Assembly: GCA_964483025.1 (NCBI GenBank) | Contig: CAYZZT010000002.1 | Span: 1-39,659 of the forward strand | DNA length: 39,659 nucleotides | Reading direction: 5' to 3' | Origin: an uncultured Candidatus Saccharibacteria bacterium | Lineage (GTDB): Bacteria; Patescibacteriota; Minisyncoccia; Phycocordibacterales; CAIZIN01 | Part shown: piece by piece, positions 2,621-38,056 of the stretch | How positions within the stretch are numbered: position 1 is the first letter of the stretch | Layout of the letters: every line of letters begins with the position of its first letter | Translations under genes and position numbers: made by a program | The notes under the pieces: generated by a model | Database searches by the model: none | Told to the model about the DNA's origin: nothing | Seen by the model: the letters and a program-made list of their open reading frames with translations, nothing else

Positions 2621-5419
2621 TTACCACTCGAACATATCCACGATATTTTCAATCGCACCTTTAACACGATCAATAATACCTTGTCTTTCTTTAATCATAG
2701 GTGCCTCAGGCAACATATCAACAATCTCCTGTCCGTTAGGTAATTTCTGAGTATACAGATATTCTCCAATCAAATGTTCGATCTTCTCTATATCAATATT
2801 TTCATCCTCAGCAATTTTCTTTAAACTATTAGAACGTTCACTTGACCAAAAGTCACTGAAGGCTTTTTCTACATCTCCGTGCTTTTCAATTTTAGGAAGA
2901 TTTTCCTCAATAAATTTCTTAATCAAATCTCGCTTCTTACGTAACTGTACATCCCTATCAAACAATCGAAGGATCTCCTCAGTCTTCTTCTTACGCACAA
3001 CATCTGAACTAATATTTTTAAGTCCTGCAATCAAATGCAGAATATAGTCAAAGTTAATAATATCCCTAACAGTTAACTCTATTTCAAAATCAATTTGGTC
3101 CAAAATAGATTCTACTCCACTATCATTATTCTTTCGGTCCTCATATACATCCAAGTATTTACTTTGATAATCGTAAAATTCTTGTTCTGTAATTCCAAGA
3201 TCTTTAAAATTAAATTCTGCAAATGTTTCAAGTGATGATTTAATGCGAAGAAGGTCCCTAAAGGCGTTAACAAATTTTGCCTTCTCTTCCTCTCCTTGCA
3301 AGTCATCAACATCAAATGCGGTAGGCACTTTTTCTCGTAGCTCAGCCAACTTATCTTCAAACTCTTTCTTTTGAACCTCGTAAGGCTTCTTGAATACTAT
3401 TTCCTTAGCATTCTCATCTCCAAACAAAGCCAACGCTTTATCGGTAGCTTCTTTTAGGTTTCTGAATGAAACAATGTTGCCGTGAGGTTTATCTGAATTT
3501 AATAATCGGTTCGTTCTTGAATATGCTTGAATAAGTCCGTGGTATCTCAAGTTCTTATCTACATACAAAGTATTAAGTCGAGGGCTATCAAATCCGGTTA
3601 GGAACATGTTCACAACTAATACAAGATCTACTTCCTTATCCTTTATTCTCTTCTGCAAATCTCTATAGTAATCATAGAATCTATCCGTTGAGAAGTTTGT
3701 TGAATATCTTTGGTTATAGTCCTTTATACAATCTTCCAAGAAATCTCTTGAGTGTTGATTGATAGCTTCCCCCTCTTCAGCAAACACATCGACATCAAGC
3801 ATATCTGAGCTTTCATCCTCATTCGCTTTATACGTAAATATTGTAGCAATAGAAAAATCTTCATCCTTCTTTTCATTCAATAACTTATAATACTTCTTCA
3901 AAACATCAACAGATGATACAGCAAATACCGCATTGAATTTACCCTGCTTTGTCTTTCTCTTCCAATCAGCCAAAACATAGTCAGCGATTTTGTTTAATCT
4001 ATCAGGACTTTCAAGAACCTCCTTAGTATCAATTCCCTCAACCATTGCATCGGCAAATATATCCTTATCAATTACATCTTGGTCCTTCTGTTTATATTTT
4101 CCTACATACTCAACTGCAAAGCCAAGAACATTATTATCATCAATAGCATGAGTAATAATATATTTATGTAAACACTCCTCAAATACATCTACAGTAGTCA
4201 CACCCCTTACATTGTTCTCTGCAAATATTGGTGTGCCGGTAAATCCAAATAGTTGAGCATTATTAAAGAAACTTTTTATACGAGCGTGAGTTTGTCCAAA
4301 TTGACTTCTGTGGCATTCATCAAAAATAATCACAACTTTTTCATTTTCCAAATAATCAAAATGTCTTAAATGCGCTTCTCTACCAATTGCAATATCAAGT
4401 TTTTGAATTGTAGTAACGATGAGTTTTCTATTCCTATCTCCAAGTTGTGCCACTAAACTGTGTGTATTATTTGTACCATCCACAGCCCCCTCAGAAAAAG
4501 AGTTAAATTCTTTAGTTGTTTGAATATCTAAATCTTTTCGGTCCACAACAAAGAGAACCTTCTTAACTTCTGGCATTCTAGAAAGTATCTGACTGGCTTT
4601 ATATGAAGTAAGGGTTTTTCCTGAGCCTGTTGTGTGCCAAATATACCCGTTCTTATCAGACTCCCTTACACGATCCTCTATAGCCCTTACAGCGTAAAAT
4701 TGATATGGACGAAGAGCCATTGGGATCTTTGTCGCTTCAGCTAACACAATATACTCAGCAATCATTTCTGATATAGTACATTTTTCCAGAAATACATTTG
4801 TGAATTCGTCTAGTTTGGTAATTTTATTATTATCTACATCGGTCCAGTAGAATGTCTGCTCAAATGTCTGCTTAGGATTATTTGAGAAGTATTTTGTATT
4901 TACTCCGTTTGAGATGACAAAGATTTGTATATATTCAAATAGTGTTCCTGTAAATGAATGTTTATGGTAGCGCTGTATTTGATTGAAAGCTTCCTTAAGT
5001 TCCATCCCTCGACGCTTAAGCTCAATTTGAACCAACGGCAAACCGTTTACAAGTAGAGTTACATCATATCTATTTTCATATCTTCCAACTTGTGTTATTT
5101 GTTGAGCAACCTGATACTCATTCTTACACCACTGATCCATGTTGAAGAATCGCACATAGAAAGTAGTTTCATCATCGCAAGTTAGTGCAAAACGATCTCT
5201 TAATGTCTTAGCCTTATGATAACGGTCCCCTTTCTCAATGTGATTCAATATACGAGTAAATTCCTCATCAGAGAATGTTGTCTGATTGAATTTCTCAAGT
5301 TGCTCCCGTAGGTTAACCATCATGGCTTTAGTGTCTTCGAGGATGATAGGTGAAAAACCTAGCTGTCTAAGCTGTTCAATTAATTCTTTTTCTAGTTGTT
5401 GTTCGGATTGGTGGGTCAT
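2621..5419 (-). CDS. hsdR: Type I restriction enzyme R subunit
   Basis: 932 aa. PD-(D/E)xK-type motif VTLLVNGLPLVQIELKRRG, SF2 motif I HTTGSGKTLTS, motif II FDECHRSQ. Last gene of the hsdM-hsdS-...-hsdR operon; its start lies 4 nt after the upstream stop. Confidence 0.93.
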   Translation of the reverse strand: MTHQSEQQLEKELIEQLRQLGFSPIILEDTKAMMVNLREQLEKFNQTTFSDEEFTRILNHIEKGDRYHKAKTLRDRFALTCDDETTFYVRFFNMDQWCKNEYQVAQQITQVGRYENRYDVTLLVNGLPLVQIELKRRGMELKEAFNQIQRYHKHSFTGTLFEYIQIFVISNGVNTKYFSNNPKQTFEQTFYWTDVDNNKITKLDEFTNVFLEKCTISEMIAEYIVLAEATKIPMALRPYQFYAVRAIEDRVRESDKNGYIWHTTGSGKTLTSYKASQILSRMPEVKKVLFVVDRKDLDIQTTKEFNSFSEGAVDGTNNTHSLVAQLGDRNRKLIVTTIQKLDIAIGREAHLRHFDYLENEKVVIIFDECHRSQFGQTHARIKSFFNNAQLFGFTGTPIFAENNVRGVTTVDVFEECLHKYIITHAIDDNNVLGFAVEYVGKYKQKDQDVIDKDIFADAMVEGIDTKEVLESPDRLNKIADYVLADWKRKTKQGKFNAVFAVSSVDVLKKYYKLLNEKKDEDFSIATIFTYKANEDESSDMLDVDVFAEEGEAINQHSRDFLEDCIKDYNQRYSTNFSTDRFYDYYRDLQKRIKDKEVDLVLVVNMFLTGFDSPRLNTLYVDKNLRYHGLIQAYSRTNRLLNSDKPHGNIVSFRNLKEATDKALALFGDENAKEIVFKKPYEVQKKEFEDKLAELREKVPTAFDVDDLQGEEEKAKFVNAFRDLLRIKSSLETFAEFNFKDLGITEQEFYDYQSKYLDVYEDRKNNDSGVESILDQIDFEIELTVRDIINFDYILHLIAGLKNISSDVVRKKKTEEILRLFDRDVQLRKKRDLIKKFIEENLPKIEKHGDVEKAFSDFWSSERSNSLKKIAEDENIDIEKIEHLIGEYLYTQKLPNGQEIVDMLPEAPMIKERQGIIDRVKGAIENIVDMFEW

Positions 5420-5423
5420 ATGA

Positions 5424-6170
5424 TTATATTATAGCTTTTTTTGGTTTTTTGTAAGTGGAACAGAAAATCTCAAGTATTATTTCACCAGCACGGCTCAGCT
5501 GTACACTCACCCCTCCACCATCAACCTCAGTTTTATATTTACGATCTGGATTATCTCTTAATACTTTGTAATCATCTTGGTCCCTCACTTGCACGTCCAG
5601 TTGATCGTAGTATAACTCAAACAAACCAGAACTAATTAAATCTCCAACATTATTCAAATCAAAATAGTGACTTTCTCTATCTTTTATAAACCAATTAAAA
5701 TCAGTTTTATTCATATCTTTTAGGGTCGATGATACTTTTAAAAACTCTTCGTATGTAATATTTCCATTTAAATAATATCTAAAGGCTATACTAATCAATT
5801 CGGAAATTTCATAATCTTCGCATGAATCAATGATATATAATAATTTTTCTCCTACTTTTATGCGGTATTTTTTTGAGTCGTCTATTGCATCTATCATCCT
5901 TTTTCTTTGCTCTGCTTTAATATCCCTTAGAGGGCCGAGAAAGGAAAGTATTTTTTTAAGAAATAATCTATCTTTAATATTTGCCCCAAATTTAAGAAAA
6001 CTTGAAATTGTTCCCACAACAGGTAAAACTTTTAATAGTCCATCGTTTAACACAGCATCAATTCCAATTTCAGAGATGTTAATGGCGACACTTTGTAAGT
6101 TTGAATCTTTTAAGGTTGTTTCAAAGGAAGATTCTATTGTATCTTTTTGCATAATATTATTTGATAACAT
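5424..6170 (-). CDS. 248-aa protein of unknown function, coupled to the OLD-family gene inside the R-M operon
   Basis: ATG at 6170 overlaps the OLD stop (6157) by 14 nt; an alternative ATG at 6152 lies 4 nt after it. Probably mostly helical, with no motif I can name. A resemblance to Abi-alpha/DUF4393-size proteins is only a guess. Confidence 0.65.
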   Translation of the reverse strand: MLSNNIMQKDTIESSFETTLKDSNLQSVAINISEIGIDAVLNDGLLKVLPVVGTISSFLKFGANIKDRLFLKKILSFLGPLRDIKAEQRKRMIDAIDDSKKYRIKVGEKLLYIIDSCEDYEISELISIAFRYYLNGNITYEEFLKVSSTLKDMNKTDFNWFIKDRESHYFDLNNVGDLISSGLFELYYDQLDVQVRDQDDYKVLRDNPDRKYKTEVDGGGVSVQLSRAGEIILEIFCSTYKKPKKAII

Positions 6171-7920
6171 CTTGTATTATTTGTTTTATTTCCCCATCTA
6201 TTTCAGAAGCTAGCATTTTTGTCCAATATATATCAATTAGTTTGGTTTTTGAAATATGTTTTGCAACAGGAACGATCGTTTTAACATCATCAAAATCTGT
6301 ATAACTACACCCCGTCAATTCTTGCTTTATATAGTTCTCAATTTCTCTTTTTTTAGTACAGAAGGCCTTCTCAATACTATCGTGACCCGCTAATGAATCT
6401 ACAAATACCTCATTTTCCGTTTTGGGCAAAGAATCTCCAGATCGATCAGAATCAATGAAGATAAAAGTTTTTAATCCTAGATTTTCTATTCTTTTTGTAT
6501 CTACCCAATCTTTAACACCTGGACAACCCCCAACTGGTAGTATTTCTATTTTTGCATCTGCTAAATTTTTATCAATTTCTCCTGCATCCTTCATAACCTG
6601 AGCAGCATGTTCTAAAAACAAACAATCGGACTTCCCTTCTACTAGAATAATTTTTTCAGCAGATCCAAACTCCTGTTTACTCAATATACCCAAGGCTTTA
6701 GCTGAAAGTATGAGAGCTCTATTACCTGATTCAACCTCCTTTGTTCCATTTGAATCATTCTGAATAAACCGAATCCCGTTAGCATAGTTTACTTCTATAC
6801 CTCTTAAAAGTTCTGGTGAGTGAGTTGTAATAACAACCTGTCTATTTGTATCTTTAGCCAACTCACTTAATGCAGTTATTACTAGTTTTTGATTATCTGG
6901 ATGTTGAGATGTTTCCGGCTCCTCAATCACATATATTATCCCTTTTCCATTTTCAGCTCCTATTTTTTCAGCTTGAGCTCTAAAAAAATTTAACAAAACA
7001 AGCCTTCGAGTTCCACTGCCTCTCTTGTTTAAGGCAACACCTCTATCATCCTCAATTTTATATTCAAATTTCCAAGTGGGTTTTGTCTTAAGCACAGGAT
7101 TTAATTCATGAGCTAATTTTGGGTCCATTTCATTAAGTTTTTGAAGAGCTGAATATGCAACCTCTTCAACCTTTTGTTGAATTTTATCTTTAATTGCATC
7201 TATTTCTGATTTATATAACTCTTGAGCCTCAGCAACAGCTAATTGCATTGGGTCTTTTGCCTCAGAATCTGAGTCTATCATTTCTCTATCAGCCCTAAAC
7301 ACAAAGAGCAAGGGAATAAAATCCTCAATCTTGGAATAAATTCTCTTTGCTTTCGCCTCAAAATCTTCAATTTTTAAATCAATGTTAGACAAACCTAAAT
7401 CTTTTACGCTTTGCCAAATAGCTTTTCTCCAGAGATGATTCATTCTAGCATCACTAACTGATAAATTTTTGGACTCAGCTAATTCCTTAAGTTGAACCTG
7501 TGTGTAGGAATGAAGAACTGGTACAGCGCTTAGAGATGGATAATTCGCAACTATATAGACCTCAGGAGACGGAGGTATTGTTTTTTCAGTACATTTATAT
7601 ATTTTTTTTATTTCCAAATTGCCATCAGAATTTAATAAATATTCCTCTTGTAAATTCGTTTCAGCTGATGCATCGATCTCAATTGAAATGGGTAATTCTG
7701 AAAAAATACAACTTATTTCAATTGATTTATCACTTCCGGTTATACACAAATCCCCAAGATCTGGTTTCTTGTTACCAAAAAAAACATCCAACGCATCTGA
7801 TATTGTAGATTTTCCAATGTCATTCTTTCCTATAAATGATGTAAATTGTTTATCGAAATCAATATTACAAGTTTCTTCGTATGATCTAAAATTCCTTATT
7901 TTTAATCCAATTAATTTCAT
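6157..7920 (-). CDS. OLD-family nuclease (ABC-type ATPase fused to a Toprim domain)
   Basis: Likely start is M15 of the listed ORF (ATG at 7920, 5 nt after the hsdS stop). Walker A GKNDIGKST, Walker B-like IIYVIEEPETSQHP, H-loop VITTHSPELL. C-terminal Toprim: ILVEGKSDCLFLE ... FIFIDSDRSGD. Confidence 0.85.
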   Translation of the reverse strand: MKLIGLKIRNFRSYEETCNIDFDKQFTSFIGKNDIGKSTISDALDVFFGNKKPDLGDLCITGSDKSIEISCIFSELPISIEIDASAETNLQEEYLLNSDGNLEIKKIYKCTEKTIPPSPEVYIVANYPSLSAVPVLHSYTQVQLKELAESKNLSVSDARMNHLWRKAIWQSVKDLGLSNIDLKIEDFEAKAKRIYSKIEDFIPLLFVFRADREMIDSDSEAKDPMQLAVAEAQELYKSEIDAIKDKIQQKVEEVAYSALQKLNEMDPKLAHELNPVLKTKPTWKFEYKIEDDRGVALNKRGSGTRRLVLLNFFRAQAEKIGAENGKGIIYVIEEPETSQHPDNQKLVITALSELAKDTNRQVVITTHSPELLRGIEVNYANGIRFIQNDSNGTKEVESGNRALILSAKALGILSKQEFGSAEKIILVEGKSDCLFLEHAAQVMKDAGEIDKNLADAKIEILPVGGCPGVKDWVDTKRIENLGLKTFIFIDSDRSGDSLPKTENEVFVDSLAGHDSIEKAFCTKKREIENYIKQELTGCSYTDFDDVKTIVPVAKHISKTKLIDIYWTKMLASEIDGEIKQIIQDVIK

Positions 7921-7925
7921 ATATA

Positions 7926-9197
7926 TTAAACAAACAACCCTTGCATTAACCCCTTCTTCCACAACTCAGCTTGGGTAATCTGTTGTTGTTTCGATTCTAT
8001 TACTTTATCAATAGAAGTCAAAAAATCTGCTATTTTTTGTTGTTCGTCAATTATAGGTATGTTTATTAATACAGATCTTAGTGTAGCTTTATTTATAGCT
8101 TTTAAACCACTACCACCAACAACAGATGCAATCTTGTTTATAAATTCCTCCGTTAACATCCATTGATAAGTAAATTCTTGATTCATAAATTCCTTAAATT
8201 TTATTACATAAGTATTTGGGGCTAAAGTCATATACCCATCATATTTTGGTACTCTATAAACTTTTCCTGTATTCCCAACATTTGCCAAAATTAATTCCCC
8301 TCCATACAAAGAAGTTTTTTTGAGAAAATCGTACCCCCTCTTATCTGTAAATCTTTGTGGTTCAAACTCCTTTTTTTCGAGATCTGTTGTCCTAACAAGG
8401 ACCGCGTAATTTTTTGTAGAGTAATACTGAACATTATCTTTCAAGGAAGCAAAGCTCCCGTTCGCTGTATAATCCGACAGAAAATCTATTGTTTCTCCAA
8501 GCTTCTTCTCCTCCCACTTCGGAAACTCCTTTCCCTTATCATCTTTAAATCGCACCTCCTGAGAAAACAACTTCTGCATCATTCCTTTTTTATAAGATTC
8601 GAATGATTCTTTTTGCGATTGTAGGTTTTCAATCAAGTTGCTTGTTAACCCTAGAAAATCTGAGATCTTCTGTTGTTCTAAAATATTAGGAATTGAAATT
8701 TTTGCGGTCTTCACTGTTTCAGATTTAAGATTTTTTACCGCAGAACCAGCGGCCAAACTTAAAAAAGTTTTTCTAATTTTTTCGCTAGTTAAAACTTCAT
8801 ACAAAAAATCATTAGATAAATTATTTTTATCTCTATTTTTCAATGCCAACCAACCGTCATGAATACAACCATCAATTTTTAATATATATGGCCTACCGAA
8901 ACTCATAGAGTTCGATAAGACAAAGTCACCAACATTAACAATTCTTGATTTTTTTGCACCTTCTTTTGTTATTTTCTCTTCTGTCTTTTCTATATATTTT
9001 GAACCCTCAACAGTATCCCCTATTTTTATCCAAGGAATACCTTCTTTTGATTTTGTTATAAAACTACTTATAGGCCTAGGTGAGGCACCACGATCAATTA
9101 ATAAAATTTCCCCCAGTTTTTTCTCTTGCCAAACATCTGAAAAACCAGGGAAGCGCAACTTAGGTATATTTTTTGACTGTGTAAATATTGTAGACAT
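7926..9197 (-). CDS. hsdS: Type I R-M specificity subunit with two target-recognition domains
   Basis: 423 aa. Duplicated conserved spacers (EKKLGEILL / EKKLGETID and ILEQQKISDFL / IDEQQKIADFL). Lies 2 nt downstream of hsdM. Confidence 0.9.
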   Translation of the reverse strand: MSTIFTQSKNIPKLRFPGFSDVWQEKKLGEILLIDRGASPRPISSFITKSKEGIPWIKIGDTVEGSKYIEKTEEKITKEGAKKSRIVNVGDFVLSNSMSFGRPYILKIDGCIHDGWLALKNRDKNNLSNDFLYEVLTSEKIRKTFLSLAAGSAVKNLKSETVKTAKISIPNILEQQKISDFLGLTSNLIENLQSQKESFESYKKGMMQKLFSQEVRFKDDKGKEFPKWEEKKLGETIDFLSDYTANGSFASLKDNVQYYSTKNYAVLVRTTDLEKKEFEPQRFTDKRGYDFLKKTSLYGGELILANVGNTGKVYRVPKYDGYMTLAPNTYVIKFKEFMNQEFTYQWMLTEEFINKIASVVGGSGLKAINKATLRSVLINIPIIDEQQKIADFLTSIDKVIESKQQQITQAELWKKGLMQGLFV

Positions 9198-9199
9198 AA

Positions 9200-10807
9200 T
9201 TAAAAAGGCTTATTTATTCCCAACTCAGAACAAAACTCACCAATGTCGCTTTGCAGTTTAATCTCCTCCATATGTAATTCCTTCAGTTTTTCTGCAATCT
9301 CTTTAATATCTACAATGTCTTCCTCCTCAAAAGTATCGACATAACGAGGAATATTTAAGTTATAATCATTCTCCTTAATCTCTTTTATACTTGCTTTGTG
9401 TGAGTATTTCTCGATTTCATTTCGATTCTTGTATGTATCAAATATTTTATAAAGATTATCATCTGTCAGATAGTTTTGATTTCCTCTCTTCTCAAATCCT
9501 CTAGAACCGTCGATAAACAAAATATCTTCATCCTCTCGACGACATTTTTTAAACACCAGAACCGTAGCAGGAATAGAAGTTCCGTAAAAGAGATTTGAAG
9601 GTAGTCCAATAACAGCATCAAGATAGTTTTGTTTCTCAATTATATATTTTCTAATCACCCCTTCGGCTCCAGATCTGAACAAAGCACCGTGAGGCAATAC
9701 AATGGCCATGGTTCCATTATCAGCAAGATGGTGCAGCATGTGTGTTACAAAGGCATAATCCGCCGCACCCTTAGGCGCAAGTCTCCCGTATTGAGAAAAT
9801 CTATCATCATGGGCCAATGCAGGATCAGTGTCTCCTTTCCATTGAGCAGAAAATGGAGGGTTGGCAACAATCGCTTCTGCCTTAAGATCTGGATGCATAT
9901 CTTCCTTAAGTGTATCTCCTTGATAAATTTTAAACTTGTCGAAATGAACTCCGTGCAAGATCATGTTCATTCTAGCGAGGTTATACGTTGTTGGGTTTAA
10001 CTCTTGCCCATAATAATTTACAACATCGGTAAATTCACCAAGACGAAGCAGGAGTGAGCCAGAACCACAAGTTGCGTCATAAGCAGATTTAATTCTTTTT
10101 TTATCTGCTGAAACAATTTGAGCAAGTAATCTTGATACCTGGGCTGGAGTATAATACTCGCCTCCCTTTTTACCCGCACCTGCAGCAAACTCTCCGATAA
10201 GATATTCATAAGCATCTCCAAGTAAATCACTCTTTGAATCTTCAAGCTTAAAATCAATACCATTAAGTAGTCCCAGTACTTCGACAACAACTTCGTTCTT
10301 CTCATTTTCTCTCGAACCAAGCTTTGTAGACGTAAGATCCATATCATCAAATAGGCCCTTGAAATCATCTTCACTAGCAGTGCCAGCAGATGTCTTTTCT
10401 ATATCATTAAGAATATTCTTTAGATCCTCCAATATAAACGCTTTTTGATCTTTTATTTCCCCTTTACCTTTTTTAACCAGATATGAAAATAGTTCCGTGG
10501 GTCTTAAGAAAAATCCTAGCTCATCAACACAAGCTTTTTTAATGTGGTCCAAATACTCTTTACCATCTTTTGTGTTTTCCTTTATTTCAGCAAAAGTAAT
10601 ACCGTCACTCTTAAGAAGTTTCTCATTAACAAACATTTCAAGTTTTTCAGATAGATATTTATAGAAAATAAAGCCAAGAATATAGTTCTTATACTCATCA
10701 GCATTCATTTTCCCCCTCAACACATTAGCAACACCCCAAAGCTGTCGCTCTAATATTTTCTTTTGTTCATCTGTCATATTATATATATCATTTAATTTAA
10801 GCCCCAT
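9200..10807 (-). CDS. hsdM: Type I R-M N6-adenine DNA methyltransferase subunit
   Basis: 535 aa. AdoMet motif DATCGSGSLL, catalytic IVANPPFSAQW, and an HsdM N-terminal helical region. Confidence 0.93.
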   Translation of the reverse strand: MGLKLNDIYNMTDEQKKILERQLWGVANVLRGKMNADEYKNYILGFIFYKYLSEKLEMFVNEKLLKSDGITFAEIKENTKDGKEYLDHIKKACVDELGFFLRPTELFSYLVKKGKGEIKDQKAFILEDLKNILNDIEKTSAGTASEDDFKGLFDDMDLTSTKLGSRENEKNEVVVEVLGLLNGIDFKLEDSKSDLLGDAYEYLIGEFAAGAGKKGGEYYTPAQVSRLLAQIVSADKKRIKSAYDATCGSGSLLLRLGEFTDVVNYYGQELNPTTYNLARMNMILHGVHFDKFKIYQGDTLKEDMHPDLKAEAIVANPPFSAQWKGDTDPALAHDDRFSQYGRLAPKGAADYAFVTHMLHHLADNGTMAIVLPHGALFRSGAEGVIRKYIIEKQNYLDAVIGLPSNLFYGTSIPATVLVFKKCRREDEDILFIDGSRGFEKRGNQNYLTDDNLYKIFDTYKNRNEIEKYSHKASIKEIKENDYNLNIPRYVDTFEEEDIVDIKEIAEKLKELHMEEIKLQSDIGEFCSELGINKPF

Positions 10808-25109: not shown

Positions 25110-25361
25110 GTACTTATACCCTCTGAAATCAGCTCAAAAAATGAATTATTAAGAAATTAAACAATATAAACAATATGAAAAATAGAAACAATATGAAAAA
25201 TGACGAAACGACAAGTTTTTTTGCTAGAGATGGTGGAGACATACTCGATCAGTTTGACCGCGGGGTATTCGCTTACTATTTCGCGGAATTTCAAAAAAAT
25301 AGCCGGAGATATAGGAAGCAGCTTAAAAGAAGAAAGATTAATAAAATTAAAAATAACTAAA

Positions 25362-27854
25362 ATGGAAACAGAAAATATGACAACGATGCTCGAATGGGCA
25401 CTAGATTATCAGAAGAAAGGATGGAATGTGATTCCTGTTAACAAGGACAAGATTCCATTCATTGGATGGAAAGCATATACGGACAAGAAGGTCACAAGCG
25501 AAGAAATATATGCATGGTGGACTAAATGGCCAGATGCAAATATTGCTGTTATTACTGGTAAAATCTCAGGGATAGTCGTTCTGGATCTAGACAGCAAGCA
25601 CGGGAGGACTTCAAAAGAGTTCGTAATACCAGTAACTGCATGCGCAAAATCAGGTAATTTAGGTGAACATTTCTTTTTCAAGTATCCGCAAGGTCTTGAA
25701 ATAAAGTCAGGAGCCGCGATAAGTGGTGAAGGTGTCGACTGTCGCGGAACCTCTGGATATATAATATTAGCTCCCTCAGTAAATGCTCAAGGAAGACAGT
25801 ATGAATGGACTATTCCATTTGAGTCACAGGAAGATCTTGCAGAGATGCCCACTTGGTTTAAGAATCTAGTAACAGACACAAAGAGTGAGAAGAAGTGGCT
25901 ATTAGGCAAGGATGGAGTCTCTGAGGGGTCTAGGAACGATACAGCGACCTCAATGGCTGGCAAAATACTATCTTATACAGCTCCAGAATTATGGGAGGCT
26001 CTAGGATGGGAACAACTACAGATTTGGAATCAAAAGAACAATCCCCCACTTCCAATGATGGAGTTGAGGGCTGTTTGGGATGGAATAAAAAATAAACAAA
26101 ATAATAGTATCAAAGTAGAATCCTTTATCGATAAATGTAATTATCTAATTTCTCAAATTCCTAAAGACACCAAAAAAGAATCCATCATAAGTGTATTGGG
26201 TCCAACAATGAAGGTACTTGCATTAAATGCAGAAGCTCAAGAGGCAGAGATGTATATCCGAAATAAGATAAAGTCTGAATTGGATATTAAAGGTAAAGAT
26301 ATAGAATCAATAATAAAGCACTTCAAAACAATGCGAGTTATTATTCTGAAAGAAGCCGAAGCAGAAAAGAAGATAGCGGAACAGATAAAAGAGGAGGAAC
26401 CCCTAACAGAATTCGAATTACAAGAAGTCGATAAGATACTAAAGTCTCCGACACTGCTTTACGATATTTTAAAGATGGTTAAAAAGCTTGGTGTTGTCGG
26501 AGAGGAAAAGAATGTGTTGCTTCATTATATAATCTTCACTTCACGAAAACTGAAACAGCCACTATCGGCAACTGTTAAAGGAGATAGCTCTTCGGGTAAG
26601 TCGTATACATTACTTACAACAATTAAACTATTCCCGAAATCTGCATACATAGATCTAACGGACGCAACTCCGCAAAGCTTTTTCTATTGTCCCGATGATC
26701 ACTTCAGAAATAAAATAATTGTGATATTCGAGAAACATGGAGGAGAACGTGCTGATTATGCAATCAGAACTCTTCAATCCGAGGGAAAATTAAAGATTCA
26801 AGTTACAGAGAAGAATCCCGATACTGGGCAATTCGAAGCAAGAACAATTGAAAAAGAAGGTCCAACAGGTTTCGTTACGACGACGACAGCTTCATTGATT
26901 CATGCAGAAAATGATACTCGTAACATTTCGATGTTCCCCGATCAAAGCTCCGAGCAAACAGGTCGAGTATACGAATCTGTTGACTCCCGTTATTTAGGAG
27001 TTCAGCCGATTAATGAAAATACAATAAAGCCTTGGCGTAACGCGCAATTAGGATTAGAGCAGATGCCTGTATATATTCCTTTTGCTAGGAGCTTCAGAAA
27101 ATACTTCCCTACTCACATTGTTCGTACAAGAAGAGATTATGGTCATTTTCTTGCAATTGTCGAGACGGTAGCATTCCTGCATCAAAGGCAACGTGAAGTA
27201 GTCGAGCTTCATGGACAAAAGTATATCAGAGCAACTTTGGCCGATGCGTATATGGCAAAGATTATTGTCGAGGATTCATTATCAAAATCCATATATGAGT
27301 TGCCAGAAAAAACAATTGAAGTAATTGAAATGGCAAGAGTTCTGGTTGAAGAACTGAAAGCTGATGATTTTGGAGATGGAGATAAGATCAAATTCACAAT
27401 TTCAAGTCTGGCAAAGAAGCTAGGTTGGGATAGGGATACTGTTGGAAAGTGGTTAAAGCCTGCAATCAAAAAAGGTTATGCAAGTATCGAAATAGAAAGC
27501 AAGGGTTCCAAAGGGGCTGAATATGTTATAGAAGAGAAAGACCTCCCAGGGGATAACTTCCTGCCTTCAGTCGAAGATCTCTCAGCCGACAACCCAAAAG
27601 AGAGGCTGGAAAATATCTATAATCCTATTACAGGAGAAGTACGTAGTACCGATGCGCCGATACATTCAGAGACAGTAGAAAATATGAATGTGGATACAGT
27701 AGAGGTAGTGGAACACTCAGATAATACTCCTCTTGAAACCATCGGTGCATCGGTAGAAACAGAGCCAGCAGAGGACATTCCTGAATTTGACGATTTCGCT
27801 GAATTCATTAATTCGAATCCAGAAAAATACAGCGAGGACGAATTACCGTTCTAG
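25362..27854 (+). CDS. bifunctional primase-polymerase (Prim-Pol) with PriCT-like region and C-terminal P-loop NTPase
   Basis: GWNVIPV...IAVITGKISGIVVLDLDSKHG (Prim-Pol N-domain with DxD), GSRNDTATSMAGKIL (PriCT-like), Walker A VKGDSSSGKSYTL, acidic tail. An in-frame upstream ATG at 25200 is the alternative start. Confidence 0.85.
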   Translation: METENMTTMLEWALDYQKKGWNVIPVNKDKIPFIGWKAYTDKKVTSEEIYAWWTKWPDANIAVITGKISGIVVLDLDSKHGRTSKEFVIPVTACAKSGNLGEHFFFKYPQGLEIKSGAAISGEGVDCRGTSGYIILAPSVNAQGRQYEWTIPFESQEDLAEMPTWFKNLVTDTKSEKKWLLGKDGVSEGSRNDTATSMAGKILSYTAPELWEALGWEQLQIWNQKNNPPLPMMELRAVWDGIKNKQNNSIKVESFIDKCNYLISQIPKDTKKESIISVLGPTMKVLALNAEAQEAEMYIRNKIKSELDIKGKDIESIIKHFKTMRVIILKEAEAEKKIAEQIKEEEPLTEFELQEVDKILKSPTLLYDILKMVKKLGVVGEEKNVLLHYIIFTSRKLKQPLSATVKGDSSSGKSYTLLTTIKLFPKSAYIDLTDATPQSFFYCPDDHFRNKIIVIFEKHGGERADYAIRTLQSEGKLKIQVTEKNPDTGQFEARTIEKEGPTGFVTTTTASLIHAENDTRNISMFPDQSSEQTGRVYESVDSRYLGVQPINENTIKPWRNAQLGLEQMPVYIPFARSFRKYFPTHIVRTRRDYGHFLAIVETVAFLHQRQREVVELHGQKYIRATLADAYMAKIIVEDSLSKSIYELPEKTIEVIEMARVLVEELKADDFGDGDKIKFTISSLAKKLGWDRDTVGKWLKPAIKKGYASIEIESKGSKGAEYVIEEKDLPGDNFLPSVEDLSADNPKERLENIYNPITGEVRSTDAPIHSETVENMNVDTVEVVEHSDNTPLETIGASVETEPAEDIPEFDDFAEFINSNPEKYSEDELPF

Positions 27855-28080: not shown

Positions 28081-28338
28081 ATGAACAAGAATACTAAGAC
28101 AGATGTAAACAGTATGATTATATCGAAAGAGAGACTCGCACAATTTACAAAACTTATCAAATACAAAACTGGAAAGAAATTATCCGAAGCCGAATCACTA
28201 GAGCAAGCACAGACACTACTGCGAACAATGATAATTCTGTATCGTCCAATAAGTCAAGAAGAATACTTTTCTGCTATTGCTAAAAAAATGTTTATTAAGT
28301 CTCAGTCGAAAAAAATTATTAGAATTAATAAAAAATAA
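28081..28338 (+). CDS. small protein upstream of the recombinase (possible directionality/regulatory factor)
   Basis: 85 aa from the ATG at 28081, which lies 15 nt after the U-tract. Its stop (28336-38) is 1 nt before the recombinase ATG. Confidence 0.5.
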   Translation: MNKNTKTDVNSMIISKERLAQFTKLIKYKTGKKLSEAESLEQAQTLLRTMIILYRPISQEEYFSAIAKKMFIKSQSKKIIRINKK

Positions 28339-28339
28339 T

Positions 28340-29935
28340 ATGAAATACAAATATGAAGTATACGTTAGAAAATCTAGCGAGAGCAAAGAGAAGCAGGCTC
28401 TCTCAATACAATCACAAAAAGACAGTATTCAGAAACAATTCCCCGACATTAATATTGTTGATTGGATAGATGAGGAGAAAAGCGCCTTCAAACCATATAA
28501 CAGACCAAAGTTTGACGATATGATGAAAAGGGTACATACAGGAAAGATTGATGGCATTATAGCCTGGCATCCAGACCGACTATCTAGAAACGAGATAGAT
28601 GCGGCTAATATAACGTATGCATTAAGAAGTGGAATACTTAAAGATCTTAAGTTTGCCAGTTACGGCTTCAGTAATTCACCAGAGGGTATACAACAACTTC
28701 AAACCTCCCTTTCCTCTTCGCAATACTATTCAGCAAAGCTTGGCGTTGATGTTAGGCGTGGATTAGGAGACAAATTGGAAATGGGAAGAATGCCAGGTCT
28801 TGCCCCGATTGGTTATCTAAATACAAAACTGGCAACACGAGGAGAAAATAAAATTGTAGAGGATCCAGAACGATTCAATATTGTTCGTAAGATGTGGGAC
28901 TTAATACTTACAGGCAATTACAGTGCTCCGCAGATTAGAATAATTGCAACAAAAGAATGGGGCTTACTAACGCAGTCAAAGAAAAAGACAGGAGGAAAAC
29001 CTATTGGTTATACAACTATCTATAATATGTTTTCAAATCTCTTCTATACAGGAAACTTTATGTATAAAGGAATAATGTATAAAGGTGATCATAGGCCAAT
29101 GATAACTATGGCTGAGTTTGACCGTGTCCAGACACTTATCAAAGCACATGGAAGTCCAAGAGCAAAGACGTTCGACTTTGCTTATGGTTACGGAACAATG
29201 AAGTGCGGAGAATGCGGGCATTCATTGGTAGCTATTGAGAAGGTAAAATATATCAAGAGTGAACAAACAACAAAGGTATATACATTGTATCTTTGTTCTA
29301 ACAAGGGGAAAGTGACAAAGTGCAGTCAAAGGGATAATGTAAATGAAAAGATAATAGAGACACAAATCAAGGATGAAATACTCAAGTATTCAATTGATCC
29401 TGAATTCCTTAATTGGTCCTTTGATGTGATGAAAGATAATAACTTCATAGAGGTTATAACTGAAAAGGATATAAAAGATACTTTAGCTAAGACTCTTGAT
29501 AACAAACAAGAAGAGCTTAAGAGGTTAATCCAAATGGCAACAAAAGGGTTTCTTTCTGACGAAGAGTTTAAAACATCAAGAACTGAACTAGACAAAACAA
29601 TAGGTGATCTAAAAGTCCAACTAAGTGAAACTGAGGGAAGCAAAGATAAAGATCTTATGGAGCTAACTGAAAAAGCTTTCGTTTATTCAACATATGCGCT
29701 TGTTGCACTTGAAAATGGTAGTAAACAAAACAAAAAAGAAATATTCAAGGGATTGGGCATGAACCGAACCATAACAGACAAAAAACTCAATATTAGAGCC
29801 AATGATTGGTATTCAGAGATAAGAAAAGGTTACTTTTCTATCAGAGAGAAAATGAACGAGCTTGAACCAGAAATACGTTGTAAACAAAAGACCATCAAGG
29901 ATTTTGACGGTCTTCGTTTACTCTTGCGCGAGTGA
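28340..29935 (+). CDS. large serine recombinase (integrase)
   Basis: YVRKSSESKEKQALSIQSQ (catalytic Ser region), HPDRLSRN, recombinase domain, Cys-rich zinc ribbon CGECGH...CSNKGKVTKC, and a coiled-coil tail. The last 9 nt overlap the 3' end of tRNA-Asp. Confidence 0.9.
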   Translation: MKYKYEVYVRKSSESKEKQALSIQSQKDSIQKQFPDINIVDWIDEEKSAFKPYNRPKFDDMMKRVHTGKIDGIIAWHPDRLSRNEIDAANITYALRSGILKDLKFASYGFSNSPEGIQQLQTSLSSSQYYSAKLGVDVRRGLGDKLEMGRMPGLAPIGYLNTKLATRGENKIVEDPERFNIVRKMWDLILTGNYSAPQIRIIATKEWGLLTQSKKKTGGKPIGYTTIYNMFSNLFYTGNFMYKGIMYKGDHRPMITMAEFDRVQTLIKAHGSPRAKTFDFAYGYGTMKCGECGHSLVAIEKVKYIKSEQTTKVYTLYLCSNKGKVTKCSQRDNVNEKIIETQIKDEILKYSIDPEFLNWSFDVMKDNNFIEVITEKDIKDTLAKTLDNKQEELKRLIQMATKGFLSDEEFKTSRTELDKTIGDLKVQLSETEGSKDKDLMELTEKAFVYSTYALVALENGSKQNKKEIFKGLGMNRTITDKKLNIRANDWYSEIRKGYFSIREKMNELEPEIRCKQKTIKDFDGLRLLLRE

Positions 29936-30237
29936 TGGGACTCGAACCCACGGCCTTCCCCGTGCATTTATCCAATATTTACATATTGGCATGGACTATA
30001 TCATCATCATAATTATTTCTAATCTTAGATGTAAGGCGCTTCGAATATTTTTTTAAATACCCTACTCCCCGAAGGGATAGTCTCTGAACCTTCCAAATAT
30101 TACATTCGGCTTGGCTGCTGATTGCCTTTTCATTCCTGAAGAAGGTTTCCAGCAATTCACCTTATTTTCGACCAGACTTTCGTACTGGAAGCTGCCAATC
30201 GACAGGGGGACGCTCTAACCAGCTGAGCTACACCCGC
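29927..30237 (-). tRNA. tRNA-Asp(GUC) interrupted by a group I intron; exons 30237..30202 and 29964..29927
   Basis: The joined exons give GCGGGTG-TA-GCTC-AGCTGGTTA-GAGC-G-TCCCC-CTGTCAC-GGGGA-AGGCC-GTGGG-TTCGAGT-CCCAT-CACTCGC-G. All stems pair, with G4.U69 and one T-stem G.U. CCA is not encoded. Confidence 0.85.
29965..30201 (-). ncRNA. 237-nt group I intron (IC3-like) in the anticodon loop
   Basis: It follows U35 and ends in G. Core elements: P-like GAATTGCTGGAAA (30158-30146), Q-like AATCAGCAGCC (30123-30113), R-like GTTCAGAGACTAT (30089-30077), S-like GATATAGTCC (30002-29993). GACTA/TAGTC forms P7. GAAA, GGAA and GTAA tetraloop hairpins are present. Confidence 0.85.
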
Positions 30238-30887
30238 AATTTAATAAACCTTTCAAATACCTGCTTTTTCCTGTCTAAAAAAATTGCGTAACTACTATTA
30301 TACATATATTTATATAAATTCAAAGCTCCAAAGACAGCATATGTAAGTCGGTAATAATTTCCACTACCTTTTCTAATCACTCCATTTTGTGGAAAATATT
30401 TTAACGTTGTATCTCTTATTGATTCTAAAAATTCTTTTGTGCAAGAGGTAAATACCACCCTAATAGTTAAATTTGGGTTTTTGTTTTCTTTATGAGCATA
30501 TCCAACCCAAACATTACCATCACCATCAAAATATCCCCTCAAAAAAGAAAACCAAAACTTTACTGGAACAGGTGGAAGTCGAAGCCTTTTGGTTTTATTT
30601 GGAAAAACATTTAATTTACCCAAATCTTCAAACATCTCTTTGCTACCAATTTGAATACAGTAGTTATTTCCTCTTCCGCCTTTTTTGTTGGATATCTTAT
30701 GCTCAGACTTCATGGCTTTTTTGATATTATCTAGCAAATCATAATCTGCACTATACATGGCAATAAAATGTGCTCCCCTTTTATTTTTTATCAAATTTCC
30801 ATCAGCGCAAATAAAGCCCAAAACATATGCCATGTTGTCAGACCATTTTTTAAAAAAATCTTTATTGTATTTTTTATAAATAGGCAT
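30228..30887 (-). CDS. double-motif LAGLIDADG homing endonuclease, free-standing
   Basis: YVLGFICADGNL and FLRGYFDGDGNV motifs. ATG at 30887 (TTG at 30905 is possible). The last codons and the TAG stop overlap tRNA-Asp nt 1-10. Confidence 0.85.
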   Translation of the reverse strand: MPIYKKYNKDFFKKWSDNMAYVLGFICADGNLIKNKRGAHFIAMYSADYDLLDNIKKAMKSEHKISNKKGGRGNNYCIQIGSKEMFEDLGKLNVFPNKTKRLRLPPVPVKFWFSFLRGYFDGDGNVWVGYAHKENKNPNLTIRVVFTSCTKEFLESIRDTTLKYFPQNGVIRKGSGNYYRLTYAVFGALNLYKYMYNSSYAIFLDRKKQVFERFIKLRV

Positions 30888-31265: not shown

Positions 31266-31339
31266 GTCGGGGTAGCTCAGGTGGTTAGAGCGGGCGCTTC
31301 ATAAGCGTCAGGTCGTGGGTTCAAGCCCCACCCTCGACA
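31266..31339 (+). tRNA. tRNA with CAT anticodon, elongator-type (Met, or Ile2 if lysidinylated)
   Basis: GTCGGGG-TA-GCTC-AGGTGGTTA-GAGC-G-GGCGC-TTCATAA-GCGTC-AGGTC-GTGGG-TTCAAGC-CCCAC-CCTCGAC-A. The 1:72 pair is G-C. Confidence 0.88.
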
Positions 31340-31395
31340 CAAAATATCTTACCTCCTTGCAATCCTCACTAAATTAGCGTACTATGTGTTCCTAT

Positions 31396-31467
31396 AGCGG
31401 GGTAGAGTAACGGTAACTCGCAAGGCTCATAACCTTGAGACTATTGGTTCGATTCCAGTCCCCGCAA
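31396..31467 (+). tRNA. tRNA with CAT anticodon, initiator-like (fMet)
   Basis: AGCGGGG...CTCATAA...ATTGG-TTCGATT-CCAGT-CCCCGCA-A. It has a 1:72 A x A mismatch and a CCCCGCAA 3' end like the E. coli initiator. Only two G-C pairs close the anticodon stem. Confidence 0.8.
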
Positions 31468-31522
31468 CATGTAAAACAAAAAATCCCCTCATGGGGATTT
31501 TTTGTTTTACATGTTGCGGGGA
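31459..31522. terminator. 30-bp perfect inverted repeat / terminator that includes the last 9 nt of tRNA-fMet
   Basis: TCCCCGCAACATGTAAAACAAAAAATCCCC, loop tcat, GGGGATTTTTTGTTTTACATGTTGCGGGGA. Confidence 0.7.
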
Positions 31523-31746: not shown

Positions 31747-32826
31747 CTACACCCAATAAAACTCCTTAAACACATCATAATAAAGTCCAATCACTCTCGC
31801 CACCTCATCATATGGAAGCTTATATTCACCTCCATCATGAGCAATACGATTACGCACTTTATGTGCCTCCCATGCCTTATCCAAAGTTGTAAAATCTCCT
31901 TCTTCTATATTTTTAAGCTTATCTCCAATACTAACTCCTGGGTATCCCATTTTATCAAGCATATCCTCCAACATAACATCGGCTTCAATAACCGCCTGAC
32001 GCCAGTCACTTGAATTATGTGATTTCAATAGAAGTTCAATATGATTCCAGCGTGTATTTTCTTTTTCTTCTGGAACATAGTCCTCAGCCCCTAAACCTAC
32101 AGGCAAATTAAGAGGTGGAGCTTCTTTTGTGTTTATCGGCATTACAGAAGAAATAGATATTTGATTCAAATCCTCCGTCTGAATCTCTTCATCATCATAA
32201 ATGGGCACATTTGATTCTTTTATGAAATAATAAATAATAATTAAAATAAGAAATGCTGAAAGTATCCATCCTATCAATTTTATATAATCCCACATTATTG
32301 GGAAAAAATTTACAACATAATATGAGAAAAATTTTGTAGTTATATCCTGTTCATCCACCCAACCACTCGGAGGATTACTATAGTCAGCCATCCACCACCT
32401 TACACCATATGCAACAATCGGTCCATCTACAATTTTTGCAACCTCACCACGCTTCTGTAAACCAATTACACTCCCTCCTGGTTCTCTGCGCACCTGAGTT
32501 AGTCCTTTATCTTTTATTTCTTTTCCTAAAAACAAATCTCCAGTTCCAAGTAGGCTTACATCTCCTTTATTATTTATTAAATTATCCCAAAAACTATAAT
32601 CACCAGAAACAGCTTGATCTGTACTTGAATTACCATTATTTGGAGATGCTATTAAATAATCTAAAACAGGAAATCTTGTAACCGCAGATATTAAAATTAC
32701 AATAGCAAGAAAAAAACCAACAAGTTCCCACATAACATCATGCCCAGTTTTTGAAGCGGGAGCTTCTGCTTTTTTATCACCTTTTTTATCAGGTTTTTTA
32801 CCAGATTTTTTTTTAACGTCAGCCAT
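31747..32826 (-). CDS. membrane protein with Lys-rich N-terminus, SH3b-like segment and conserved C-terminal helical domain
   Basis: 359 aa with two TM segments. GSVIGLQKRGEVAKIVDGPIVAYGVRWWMADY...GWVDEQDI is SH3b-like. The C-terminus is WRQAVIEADVMLEDML...AHKVRNRIAHDG. Confidence 0.65.
   Translation of the reverse strand: MADVKKKSGKKPDKKGDKKAEAPASKTGHDVMWELVGFFLAIVILISAVTRFPVLDYLIASPNNGNSSTDQAVSGDYSFWDNLINNKGDVSLLGTGDLFLGKEIKDKGLTQVRREPGGSVIGLQKRGEVAKIVDGPIVAYGVRWWMADYSNPPSGWVDEQDITTKFFSYYVVNFFPIMWDYIKLIGWILSAFLILIIIYYFIKESNVPIYDDEEIQTEDLNQISISSVMPINTKEAPPLNLPVGLGAEDYVPEEKENTRWNHIELLLKSHNSSDWRQAVIEADVMLEDMLDKMGYPGVSIGDKLKNIEEGDFTTLDKAWEAHKVRNRIAHDGGEYKLPYDEVARVIGLYYDVFKEFYWV

Positions 32827-35183: not shown

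Positions 35184-38056
<2,873 letters not shown>

Follow-up and report, generated by a model that had tools for sequence, protein, structure and literature searches.

A group I intron in a tRNA-Asp(GUC) gene flanked by a LAGLIDADG endonuclease gene and a serine recombinase island in an uncultured Saccharibacteria bacterium

The tRNA-Asp locus

The DNA stretch analyzed here, 39,659 nt of contig CAYZZT010000002.1 from an uncultured Candidatus Saccharibacteria bacterium (the window), carries on its minus strand a tRNA-Asp(GUC) gene that is split within the anticodon by a group I intron of 237 nt. A LAGLIDADG endonuclease gene overlaps the 5' end of this tRNA gene and a serine recombinase gene its 3' end. 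The presence of ligA, gatCA and pilin genes indicates that the window is chromosomal. The features at the locus are as follows.

30228..30887, minus strand: free-standing double-motif LAGLIDADG endonuclease gene, 219 aa (Pfam PF14528), outside the intron and co-oriented with tRNA-Asp
30202..30237, minus strand: 5' exon of tRNA-Asp(GUC), tRNA nt 1-35, GCGGGTGTAGCTCAGCTGGTTAGAGCGTCCCCCTGT, with the 3' end ...CCCCCUGU and U35 in the -1 position
29965..30201, minus strand: group I intron, 237 nt (Rfam RF00028 match, covariation in 23 homologues)
29927..29964, minus strand: 3' exon of tRNA-Asp, tRNA nt 36-73, CACGGGGAAGGCCGTGGGTTCGAGTCCCATCACTCGCG, beginning with CAC; discriminator G73, no encoded CCA
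28277..29935, plus strand: large serine recombinase at the edge of an island (Pfam Resolvase, Recombinase, Zn_ribbon)

The exon strings and the 237-nt insert listed in a first-pass annotation of this DNA were found exactly as given on the minus strand. ARAGORN named the joined 74-mer tRNA-Asp(gtc), with the canonical cloverleaf and the anticodon loop CUGUCAC that the annotation had proposed. In the predicted spliced tRNA-Asp the exon junction reads ...CCCCCUGU/CACGGGG..., i.e. ...CCCCCUGUCACGGGG..., and the U before the insert and the G at its end were in place as U35 and the omega-G (position 29965). When run with default settings on the window, ARAGORN reported two tRNA-Met genes only and nothing at the tRNA-Asp locus, and it found no second tRNA-Asp in the 39.6 kb. 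The placement from its intron-enabled run (39/238) was rejected because it violates the U-1/omega-G rule; the exons were instead called anew from the U.G wobble, the omega-G and the complementarity of the anticodon stem.

An uninterrupted allele was found in a relative (L189) whose gene order, ligA-gatC-gatA-orf342-tRNA-Met-...-tRNA-Met-tRNA-Asp, is syntenic with the window. Its tRNA-Asp is identical to the predicted spliced product of the window at 71 of 74 positions. Of the three differences, two together make up a compensatory C30-G40 to G30-C40 swap spanning the splice junction, and the 5' exon of the window equals the L189 tRNA-Asp except for one compensated stem base. As the L189 allele is uninterrupted, the intron can be delimited exactly, as the 237 nt that separate T35 from C36 (CUGU/CAC), and the swap across the junction shows that the spliced tRNA is under selection. 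The insertion point between the second and third anticodon nucleotides (nt 35/36), as first annotated, is thereby upheld. Its supposed identity with the site of the tRNA-Leu(UAA) intron is not, since Williams 2020 places the Leu intron at 34/35 (CUU/AAAA).

Structure of the intron

A search with Rfam, proposed as a check when the locus was first annotated, gave a significant match to RF00028 (Intron_gpI) over the full length of the model (84.4 bits, E 3e-20; gathering score 50). The helices are listed below; window coordinates are obtained by subtracting the intron nt number from 30202.

30192..30205, minus strand: P1, exon C32-U35 and intron C1 with the guide GGCAG (nt 6-10), loop GAUU; read from the sequence
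30172..30188, minus strand: P2, nt 14-30, GAAA loop; minimum free energy (MFE) fold and covariation
30088..30164, minus strand: P3 5' strand (nt 38-44) and the P4-P5-P5a-P6-P6a domain (nt 48-114), P and Q elements included; covariation. P3 is formed by nt 38-44/164-170, P4 by nt 48-53/81-86, P5 and P5a by nt 57-77 (GGAA loop), P6 and P6a by nt 87-114
30078..30082, minus strand: P7 5' strand GACUA, nt 120-124, in the R element GUUCAGAGACUA; pairs with 29994-29998
30043..30077, minus strand: P7.1 (nt 125-136, UUCG loop, CCC-UUCG-GGG) and P7.2 (nt 140-159), between P7 and P3'; insertion relative to the Rfam consensus
30005..30038, minus strand: P3 3' strand CGCCUUA (nt 164-170) and P8/P8a (nt 171-197, GAAA loop); fold and covariation
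29965..29998, minus strand: P7 3' strand UAGUC (S element, nt 204-208), P9 (nt 213-230, GUAA loop) and the omega-G, nt 237, at 29965; covariation

The P1 pairing of CUGU with GCAG lies where it was first annotated, with U35.G7 as the wobble, and intron C1 with G6 adds a fifth pair. The P1 of the Rfam model (30292-30262), which treats the 5' exon as an insert, was rejected in favour of this loop-derived P1. No match to the combined P1 and P4 pattern was found in 100 shuffles of the window. The earlier P, Q, R and S strings and the GACUA/UAGUC pairing of P7 were all located, and the four hairpins quoted with them correspond to P2 (GAAA), P5a (GGAA), P9 (GUAA) and P7.1 (CCC-UUCG-GGG); also P8a is capped by GAAA. 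No open reading frame (ORF) longer than 64 aa was found in the intron, in agreement with its description as ORF-less. A P10 of 2 bp, C36-G6 and A37-U5, is possible from the sequence.

Homologous introns and covariation

A set of 185,579 species-representative genomes was scanned with the pattern CTGTC-N(2-12)-GGCAGCTT-N(25-55)-AATTNNNGGAAA, which gave 97 matches. From these, loci with tRNA exons, U-1 and omega-G were retained, and because the pattern is exact the counts are lower bounds. After filtering, the number of split genes besides that of the window was at least 10 for tRNA-Asp and at least 24 for tRNA-Asn(GUU), all cut after CUGU. Two further loci (L028 and L051) read as split tRNA-Tyr but failed the filter. 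The retained loci were nearly all from metagenome-assembled genomes of Patescibacteria; Margulisiibacteriota/Saganbacteria, Omnitrophota and Elusimicrobia accounted for the few others.

The intron type of the window was present in the tRNA-Asp of six other species-level genomes (L032, L033, L035, L060, L071 and L092). In addition, four Woesebacteria-type Asp introns (L016, L021, L042 and L083; 185-196 nt) run from P7 straight to P3', with neither P7.1 nor P7.2.

The split tRNA-Asn(GUU) loci (L009-L098) were called tRNA-Thr(tgt) by ARAGORN with introns enabled, because an alternative cut after CU also yields a loop of 7 nt. The U.G wobble of P1 and the Asn-like body (UCC...GGAG) identify these genes as tRNA-Asn. 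In the Williams 2020 seed alignment, the start of Pgr210.Thr.2Ug likewise reads cuguc...GGCAG, and this entry may be a mislabelled Asn case of the same kind.

The structural alignment included 23 introns of one architecture, 7 hosted by tRNA-Asp and 16 by tRNA-Asn. RNAalifold recovered the anticodon stem, P1-P6a, P7.1, P7.2, P8 and P9, and covariation was counted on this structure with P7 added. Altogether 94.9% of the cells were paired, against 34-43% when the partners were slid by 1-3 columns. Compensatory changes on both sides were present in 42 of the 67 pairs, against 12-20 in the slid controls, and none of 500 shuffles matched the observed structure score. All pairs covaried in P6a (8/8), and those of P2 (5/5) and P7.2 (6/6) had changes on both sides, including an A-U to G-C change of P2 in L060; P7.1 had compensatory changes in 2 of 4 pairs. 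In P4, GCU/AGC is replaced by CGG/CCG in 11 of the 23 introns. The omega-G preceding the 3' splice site was invariant, as were the five pairs of P1. The P7 strands GACUA/UAGUC are complementary but likewise did not vary, their pairing being supported by sequence only. In the neighbor-joining tree the Asp-hosted introns were monophyletic, and the nearest non-Asp relative in the alignment was the Asn-hosted L053, approximately 30% divergent over 203 columns.

Two other introns were noted among the relatives. A predicted viral contig (L004, IMG/VR UViG_3300025858_000494) carries an array of about ten tRNAs, in which a group I intron (5812-6025, Rfam 64 bits) interrupts one tRNA-Asp at the same site. 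The closest sequenced relative, L033, contains a second group I intron (4993-5205, minus strand, 64 bits) a few hundred bases 5' of the LAGLIDADG gene and beside another tRNA; the counterpart region of the window holds two uninterrupted tRNA-Met genes (31266-31468, plus strand).

With a probability of roughly 0.9, the locus is a functional and probably single-copy tRNA-Asp(GUC) gene with an ORF-less 237-nt group I intron between U35 and C36. Several observations weigh against this. The absence of a second intact tRNA-Asp holds for the 39.6-kb window only. P1 and P7 do not vary, and for these two helices covariation therefore speaks neither for nor against the pairing. The P10 of the window copy is just 2 bp, and the intron by itself has a modest MFE z-score (-2.2). 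Furthermore, its architecture would place the intron in subgroup IA rather than IC3, a placement made from the architecture alone.

The view being one of DNA and of 39.6 kb of a genome, the locus might also be dead: the intron would no longer splice, and the tRNA-Asp copy would be a pseudogene while another copy serves the cell. This is very improbable in the light of the intact catalytic core, the 94.9% of pairs kept across approximately 30% sequence divergence, the compensatory change of the anticodon stem across the splice junction and the retention of the arrangement in seven species-level genomes. Also the gene content of Patescibacteria, which usually have one gene per tRNA, counts against it.

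Comparison with known tRNA introns

IC3 introns reportedly have a compact core in which P3' comes right after P7, P7.1 and P7.2 being absent, and subgroup IA is characterized by an extra P7.1 and P7.2 between P7 and P3' (Michel and Westhof 1990). The window intron has 35 nt with two hairpins between P7 and P3', which departs from IC3 and agrees with subgroup IA. An example of this IA architecture is given in PMC2248736.

According to Williams 2020 (bioRxiv 10.1101/2020.01.27.920355), a scan of 80,413 bacterial genomes raised the number of tRNA/site types with introns from four to 21. The four classical types are Leu.3Ug, fMet.2Ug, Arg.5Ug and Ile2.5Ug, all IC3, and the seed alignment also holds Wba81.Asp.4Ug, Pam37.Asn.4Ug and Mba143.Tyr.4Ug. 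Nakagawa et al. 2025, a preprint cited in PMC12641178, deals with tRNA introns of Patescibacteria. The suggestion that Asp would be an unusual host, beyond Leu(UAA), fMet, Arg(CCU) and Ile(CAU), does not stand: Asp.4Ug is listed in Williams 2020, and at least 10 further split tRNA-Asp genes were found in our scan. The window intron has the features of this class, namely a tRNA-Asp(GUC) host, insertion after the fourth nucleotide of the anticodon loop, U-1 and omega-G. It is thus a new member of a catalogued class, not a new host or site.

In the seed alignment, Wba81.Asp.4Ug agrees with the window intron in the tRNA-Asp host, the CUGU/CAC site, U-1, the omega-G and a P1 of CUGUC/GGCAG followed by CUU. 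It resembles the Woesebacteria intron L021 (CP011214), the comparison covering the opening bases and the P1 guide only. The published Asp.4Ug representative and its relatives L016, L021, L042 and L083 have neither P7.1 nor P7.2 nor a LAGLIDADG neighbour, whereas the window intron has all three. Unlike the Woesebacteria-type Asp.4Ug, the window intron clusters with Asn-hosted introns. The Asn.4Ug introns (e.g. Pam37.Asn.4Ug) share its loop position, P1, core and P7.1-GUA-P7.2-GAAGCGCC architecture, and most of the tRNA-Asn introns found in the scan have the same P7.1/P7.2 architecture and P1. They differ in the 3' exon, which reads UAA... in contrast to CAC... in the window, and no LAGLIDADG gene is nearby.

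The classical IC3 tRNA introns, of Leu(UAA) in cyanobacteria and plastids, fMet, Arg(CCU) and Azoarcus Ile(CAU), are likewise small, ORF-less and self-splicing, lie in the anticodon loop, and have a loop-derived P1 stacked on the anticodon stem, as the window intron would. They differ in loop position (Leu.3, fMet.2, Arg.5, Ile2.5) and in having no P7.1/P7.2. The phage IA2 introns (T4 td/nrdB type; DNA polymerase introns) have P7.1 and P7.2 between P7 and P3' like the window, but lie in protein-coding genes and often carry an endonuclease ORF of their own. In a BLAST search many phage records matched the P3-P7 core at 72-78% identity, with a query coverage of 43% at most. A phage origin was rejected because the similarity is confined to the core; among three IMG/VR matches to the pattern there was one tRNA-Asp-like locus, L004.

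The LAGLIDADG gene and its association with tRNA-Asp

The LAGLIDADG ORF lies entirely 5' of the intron and is neither intron- nor intein-encoded. Its last three codons (TTG CGG GTG) and TAG stop coincide with tRNA nt 1-10, the stop falling on nt 8-10, and approximately 26 bp lie between its 3' end and the intron insertion site downstream. The two motifs are LGFICADGN and LRGYFDGDGN, and the catalytic D29 and D123 were invariant in 32 sequences. The AlphaFold2 model (mean predicted local distance difference test, pLDDT, 91.7) has the pseudo-dimeric fold of a monomeric LAGLIDADG enzyme, for which the best Foldseek match was 2dch (I-Tsp061I, an archaeal intron enzyme; E 5e-11). The dN/dS ratio (nonsynonymous to synonymous substitution rates) of 0.06-0.13 indicates strong purifying selection. 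NCBIfam had no match for the protein.

The same gene was present at the same place in the six close relatives of the window. Identity to the window enzyme was 52-80% among relatives, while GatA stayed at 60-63%. The family included 1481 protein clusters at E ≤ 1e-5, and in a metagenome scan at least 544 LAGLIDADG relatives were confirmed among the 600 pattern matches listed. Altogether 86 homologue loci (L103-L188) with 36-82% identity to the window enzyme were examined. A tRNA-Asp(GUC) gene lay directly downstream in all 73 resolved loci, and no other neighbour was found. This tRNA was uninterrupted in 58 of the 86 loci and split at the same site by another group I lineage in 15; it was not resolved in the remaining 13, namely twelve loci of which most were cut by contig ends and one in which the ORF runs off the contig. 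The second intron lineage has the P1 CUGUAG/CUGCAG, no P7.1/P7.2 and Rfam scores of 40-52 bits. The stop codon lay within the tRNA in 51 of 72 loci, most often as TAG at tRNA nt 8-10. No LAGLIDADG gene was found within 3 kb of the Asn-hosted introns, beside the Woesebacteria-type Asp introns or in the syntenic L189. The endonuclease gene is therefore linked to tRNA-Asp and not to the intron, as intron-free loci have the gene and other hosts of the intron lack it. No description of a LAGLIDADG family adjoining tRNA-Asp was found in the literature that could be searched.

It is possible, though we hold it only tentatively, that the LAGLIDADG enzyme is a cellular homing endonuclease that uses the conserved 5' part of the tRNA as its homing site and gives ORF-less introns mobility in trans. 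The enzyme may home to the 5' flank of the tRNA, with the intron carried along by co-conversion. If this were true, each homing event would drag along the content of the anticodon loop 36 bp away, which would explain the occurrence of at least two unrelated intron lineages and of empty sites behind the LAGLIDADG gene.

The enzyme might alternatively cut the uninterrupted tRNA-Asp at or near the intron site itself, the intron then protecting the genome and being co-copied. Such collaborative homing, a model described for phages, is reviewed in PMC3984707 for F-CphI/psbA of cyanophage S-PM2 and mobE/nrdB of Aeromonas phage Aeh1, where, as in the window, an endonuclease gene outside an ORF-less intron lies beside the interrupted gene. 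The window differs from the phage pairs in having a LAGLIDADG enzyme in a cellular genome, tied to the 5' end of a tRNA and usually intron-free. This alternative concerns the spread of the intron and not its identity. All seven genomes with this type of Asp intron have the endonuclease gene directly upstream, and the divergence of the endonuclease and that of the intron run parallel. The two retained catalytic Asp residues, the low dN/dS (0.06-0.13) and the confident LAGLIDADG fold are likewise in its favour, as are the at least two unrelated intron lineages at the identical site behind this gene family. Nevertheless, we consider it unlikely: 58 of the 86 family loci adjoin an uninterrupted tRNA-Asp, and the same intron lineage resides in tRNA-Asn without such a gene within 3 kb. 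Also L109, whose enzyme is 82% identical to that of the window, has an uninterrupted tRNA loop; the 5' half of its anticodon stem-loop is CUUCCCUGU, that of the window UCCCCCUGU.

A third role of the neighbour, that of a maturase assisting the folding of the intron as in the fungal mitochondrial I-AniI or bI3, appears improbable. The gene is co-oriented with the tRNA, overlaps it by 10 nt and is probably co-transcribed with it, and the bifunctional endonuclease/maturase I-AniI was among the structural matches (rank 8). However, most family members stand beside an intronless tRNA-Asp, so that maturase activity cannot be what maintains the family, and the same intron lineage in tRNA-Asn lacks such a neighbour. 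The complete core of the intron and its tetraloop-rich periphery also speak against a need for assistance.

The serine recombinase island

The last 9 nt of the recombinase ORF (28277..29935) overlap the 3' end of tRNA-Asp, and the junction of the island lies approximately 3 nt beyond the tRNA, near 29923. A contig from the same sample (L002) shares the sequence of the window without a difference up to the end of the tRNA and departs from it 3-4 nt beyond. Likewise, the JGI contig siNVi-82 encodes the same GatA and LAGLIDADG proteins and has a different downstream gene, and sister contigs from the same sample are without the island. Homologous recombinases were found at the same position in L035 (1581-3164) and L189 (7269-8879), with their last codons overlapping the tRNA. 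As L002 and siNVi-82 differ from the window at this point and L035 and L189 share its arrangement, the island is integrated at the 3' end of the tRNA and polymorphic in the population. It also carries a PrimPol gene (25200-27854).

No direct repeat of the tRNA 3' end marking the other border of the island was found in the window. Integration of the classical tRNA type was rejected because such a repeat is lacking, which fits a serine recombinase. The exact look-up of the recombinase protein gave no match, and its annotated start codon may therefore be wrong.

Proposed splicing and origin of the intron

From known group I chemistry, splicing would proceed as follows. The pre-tRNA would be transcribed, probably along with the upstream LAGLIDADG mRNA, and its anticodon stem would form and stack on P1. 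Exon C32-U33-G34-U35 and intron C1 would pair with the guide GGCAG, setting U35.G7 at the 5' splice site, and the P3-P9 core would fold around P7, with the P7.1 and P7.2 typical of subgroup IA. An external guanosine would then attack after U35. Thereafter G237 would take over the G site and the freed 3'-OH of U35 would attack before C36, ligating the exons to the loop CUGUCAC and releasing the intron.

Judged from the sequences, the intron lineage seems to reside mostly in tRNA-Asn(GUU), at the same loop position. As C32-U33-G34-U35 is common to tRNA-Asn, -Asp and -Tyr, the three can be matched by one guide sequence (GGCAG). The Asp-hosted introns would be explained most simply by a single jump between the Asn and Asp genes, and co-conversion with the LAGLIDADG gene may have aided their subsequent spread.

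Significance of the locus

With its exact empty-site control, the locus is a well-supported addition to a class for which a preprint and its software have been the only sources, and it indicates that bacterial tRNA introns are not all IC3. The single guide GGCAG serving tRNA-Asn, -Asp and -Tyr offers a concrete route for introns hopping between tRNA genes. Standard tRNA finders miss or mislabel such genes (ARAGORN reports nothing by default and calls the Asn cases Thr), so that completeness checks of Patescibacteria genomes can be misled into scoring tRNA-Asp or tRNA-Asn as missing.

Three elements meet here at one small essential gene: a ribozyme intron within it, an endonuclease gene fused to its 5' boundary and, at its 3' boundary, a recombinase island. 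Their presence or absence varies independently among relatives, which makes the locus a natural system for studying how selfish elements share a conserved target. The neighbourhood, above all the tRNA-Asp-bound LAGLIDADG family, is a more interesting lead than the intron itself, which is of modest interest. With some doubt, the intron might even be ranked as the least novel of three selfish elements converging on one 74-nt gene. Other features worth following up are the subgroup-IA-type architecture in a tRNA and the guide sequence common to Asn, Asp and Tyr.

Other genes in the window

LigA (35184-37490) has 768 aa, against the usual approximately 670, with an in-frame insertion of approximately 96 aa in the adenylation domain (36444-36788, minus strand). 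The inserted DNA contains an GTCATTCCGGCGAAGGCCGGAATCC hairpin, AAATCCG/AAATTC tandem repeats and an inverted GGGCGGGAATGAC end, and from these it looks like a small inverted-repeat element. Another intron was rejected as an explanation, since there was no Rfam signal. A long LigA is present also in some relatives (761 and 714 aa).

A type I restriction-modification operon (hsdR, hsdS, hsdM) is located at 2621-10807 on the minus strand, and a gene for an OLD-family ATPase/TOPRIM nuclease (6157-7962) is inserted between hsdR and hsdS. An 86-aa ORF had no NCBIfam match. After gatC-gatA, where gatB would be expected, lies a conserved gene of 359 aa (31747-32826, minus strand), which is found at the same position in relatives; it had no Pfam or NCBIfam match, and 501 homologues were detected at E ≤ 1e-10.

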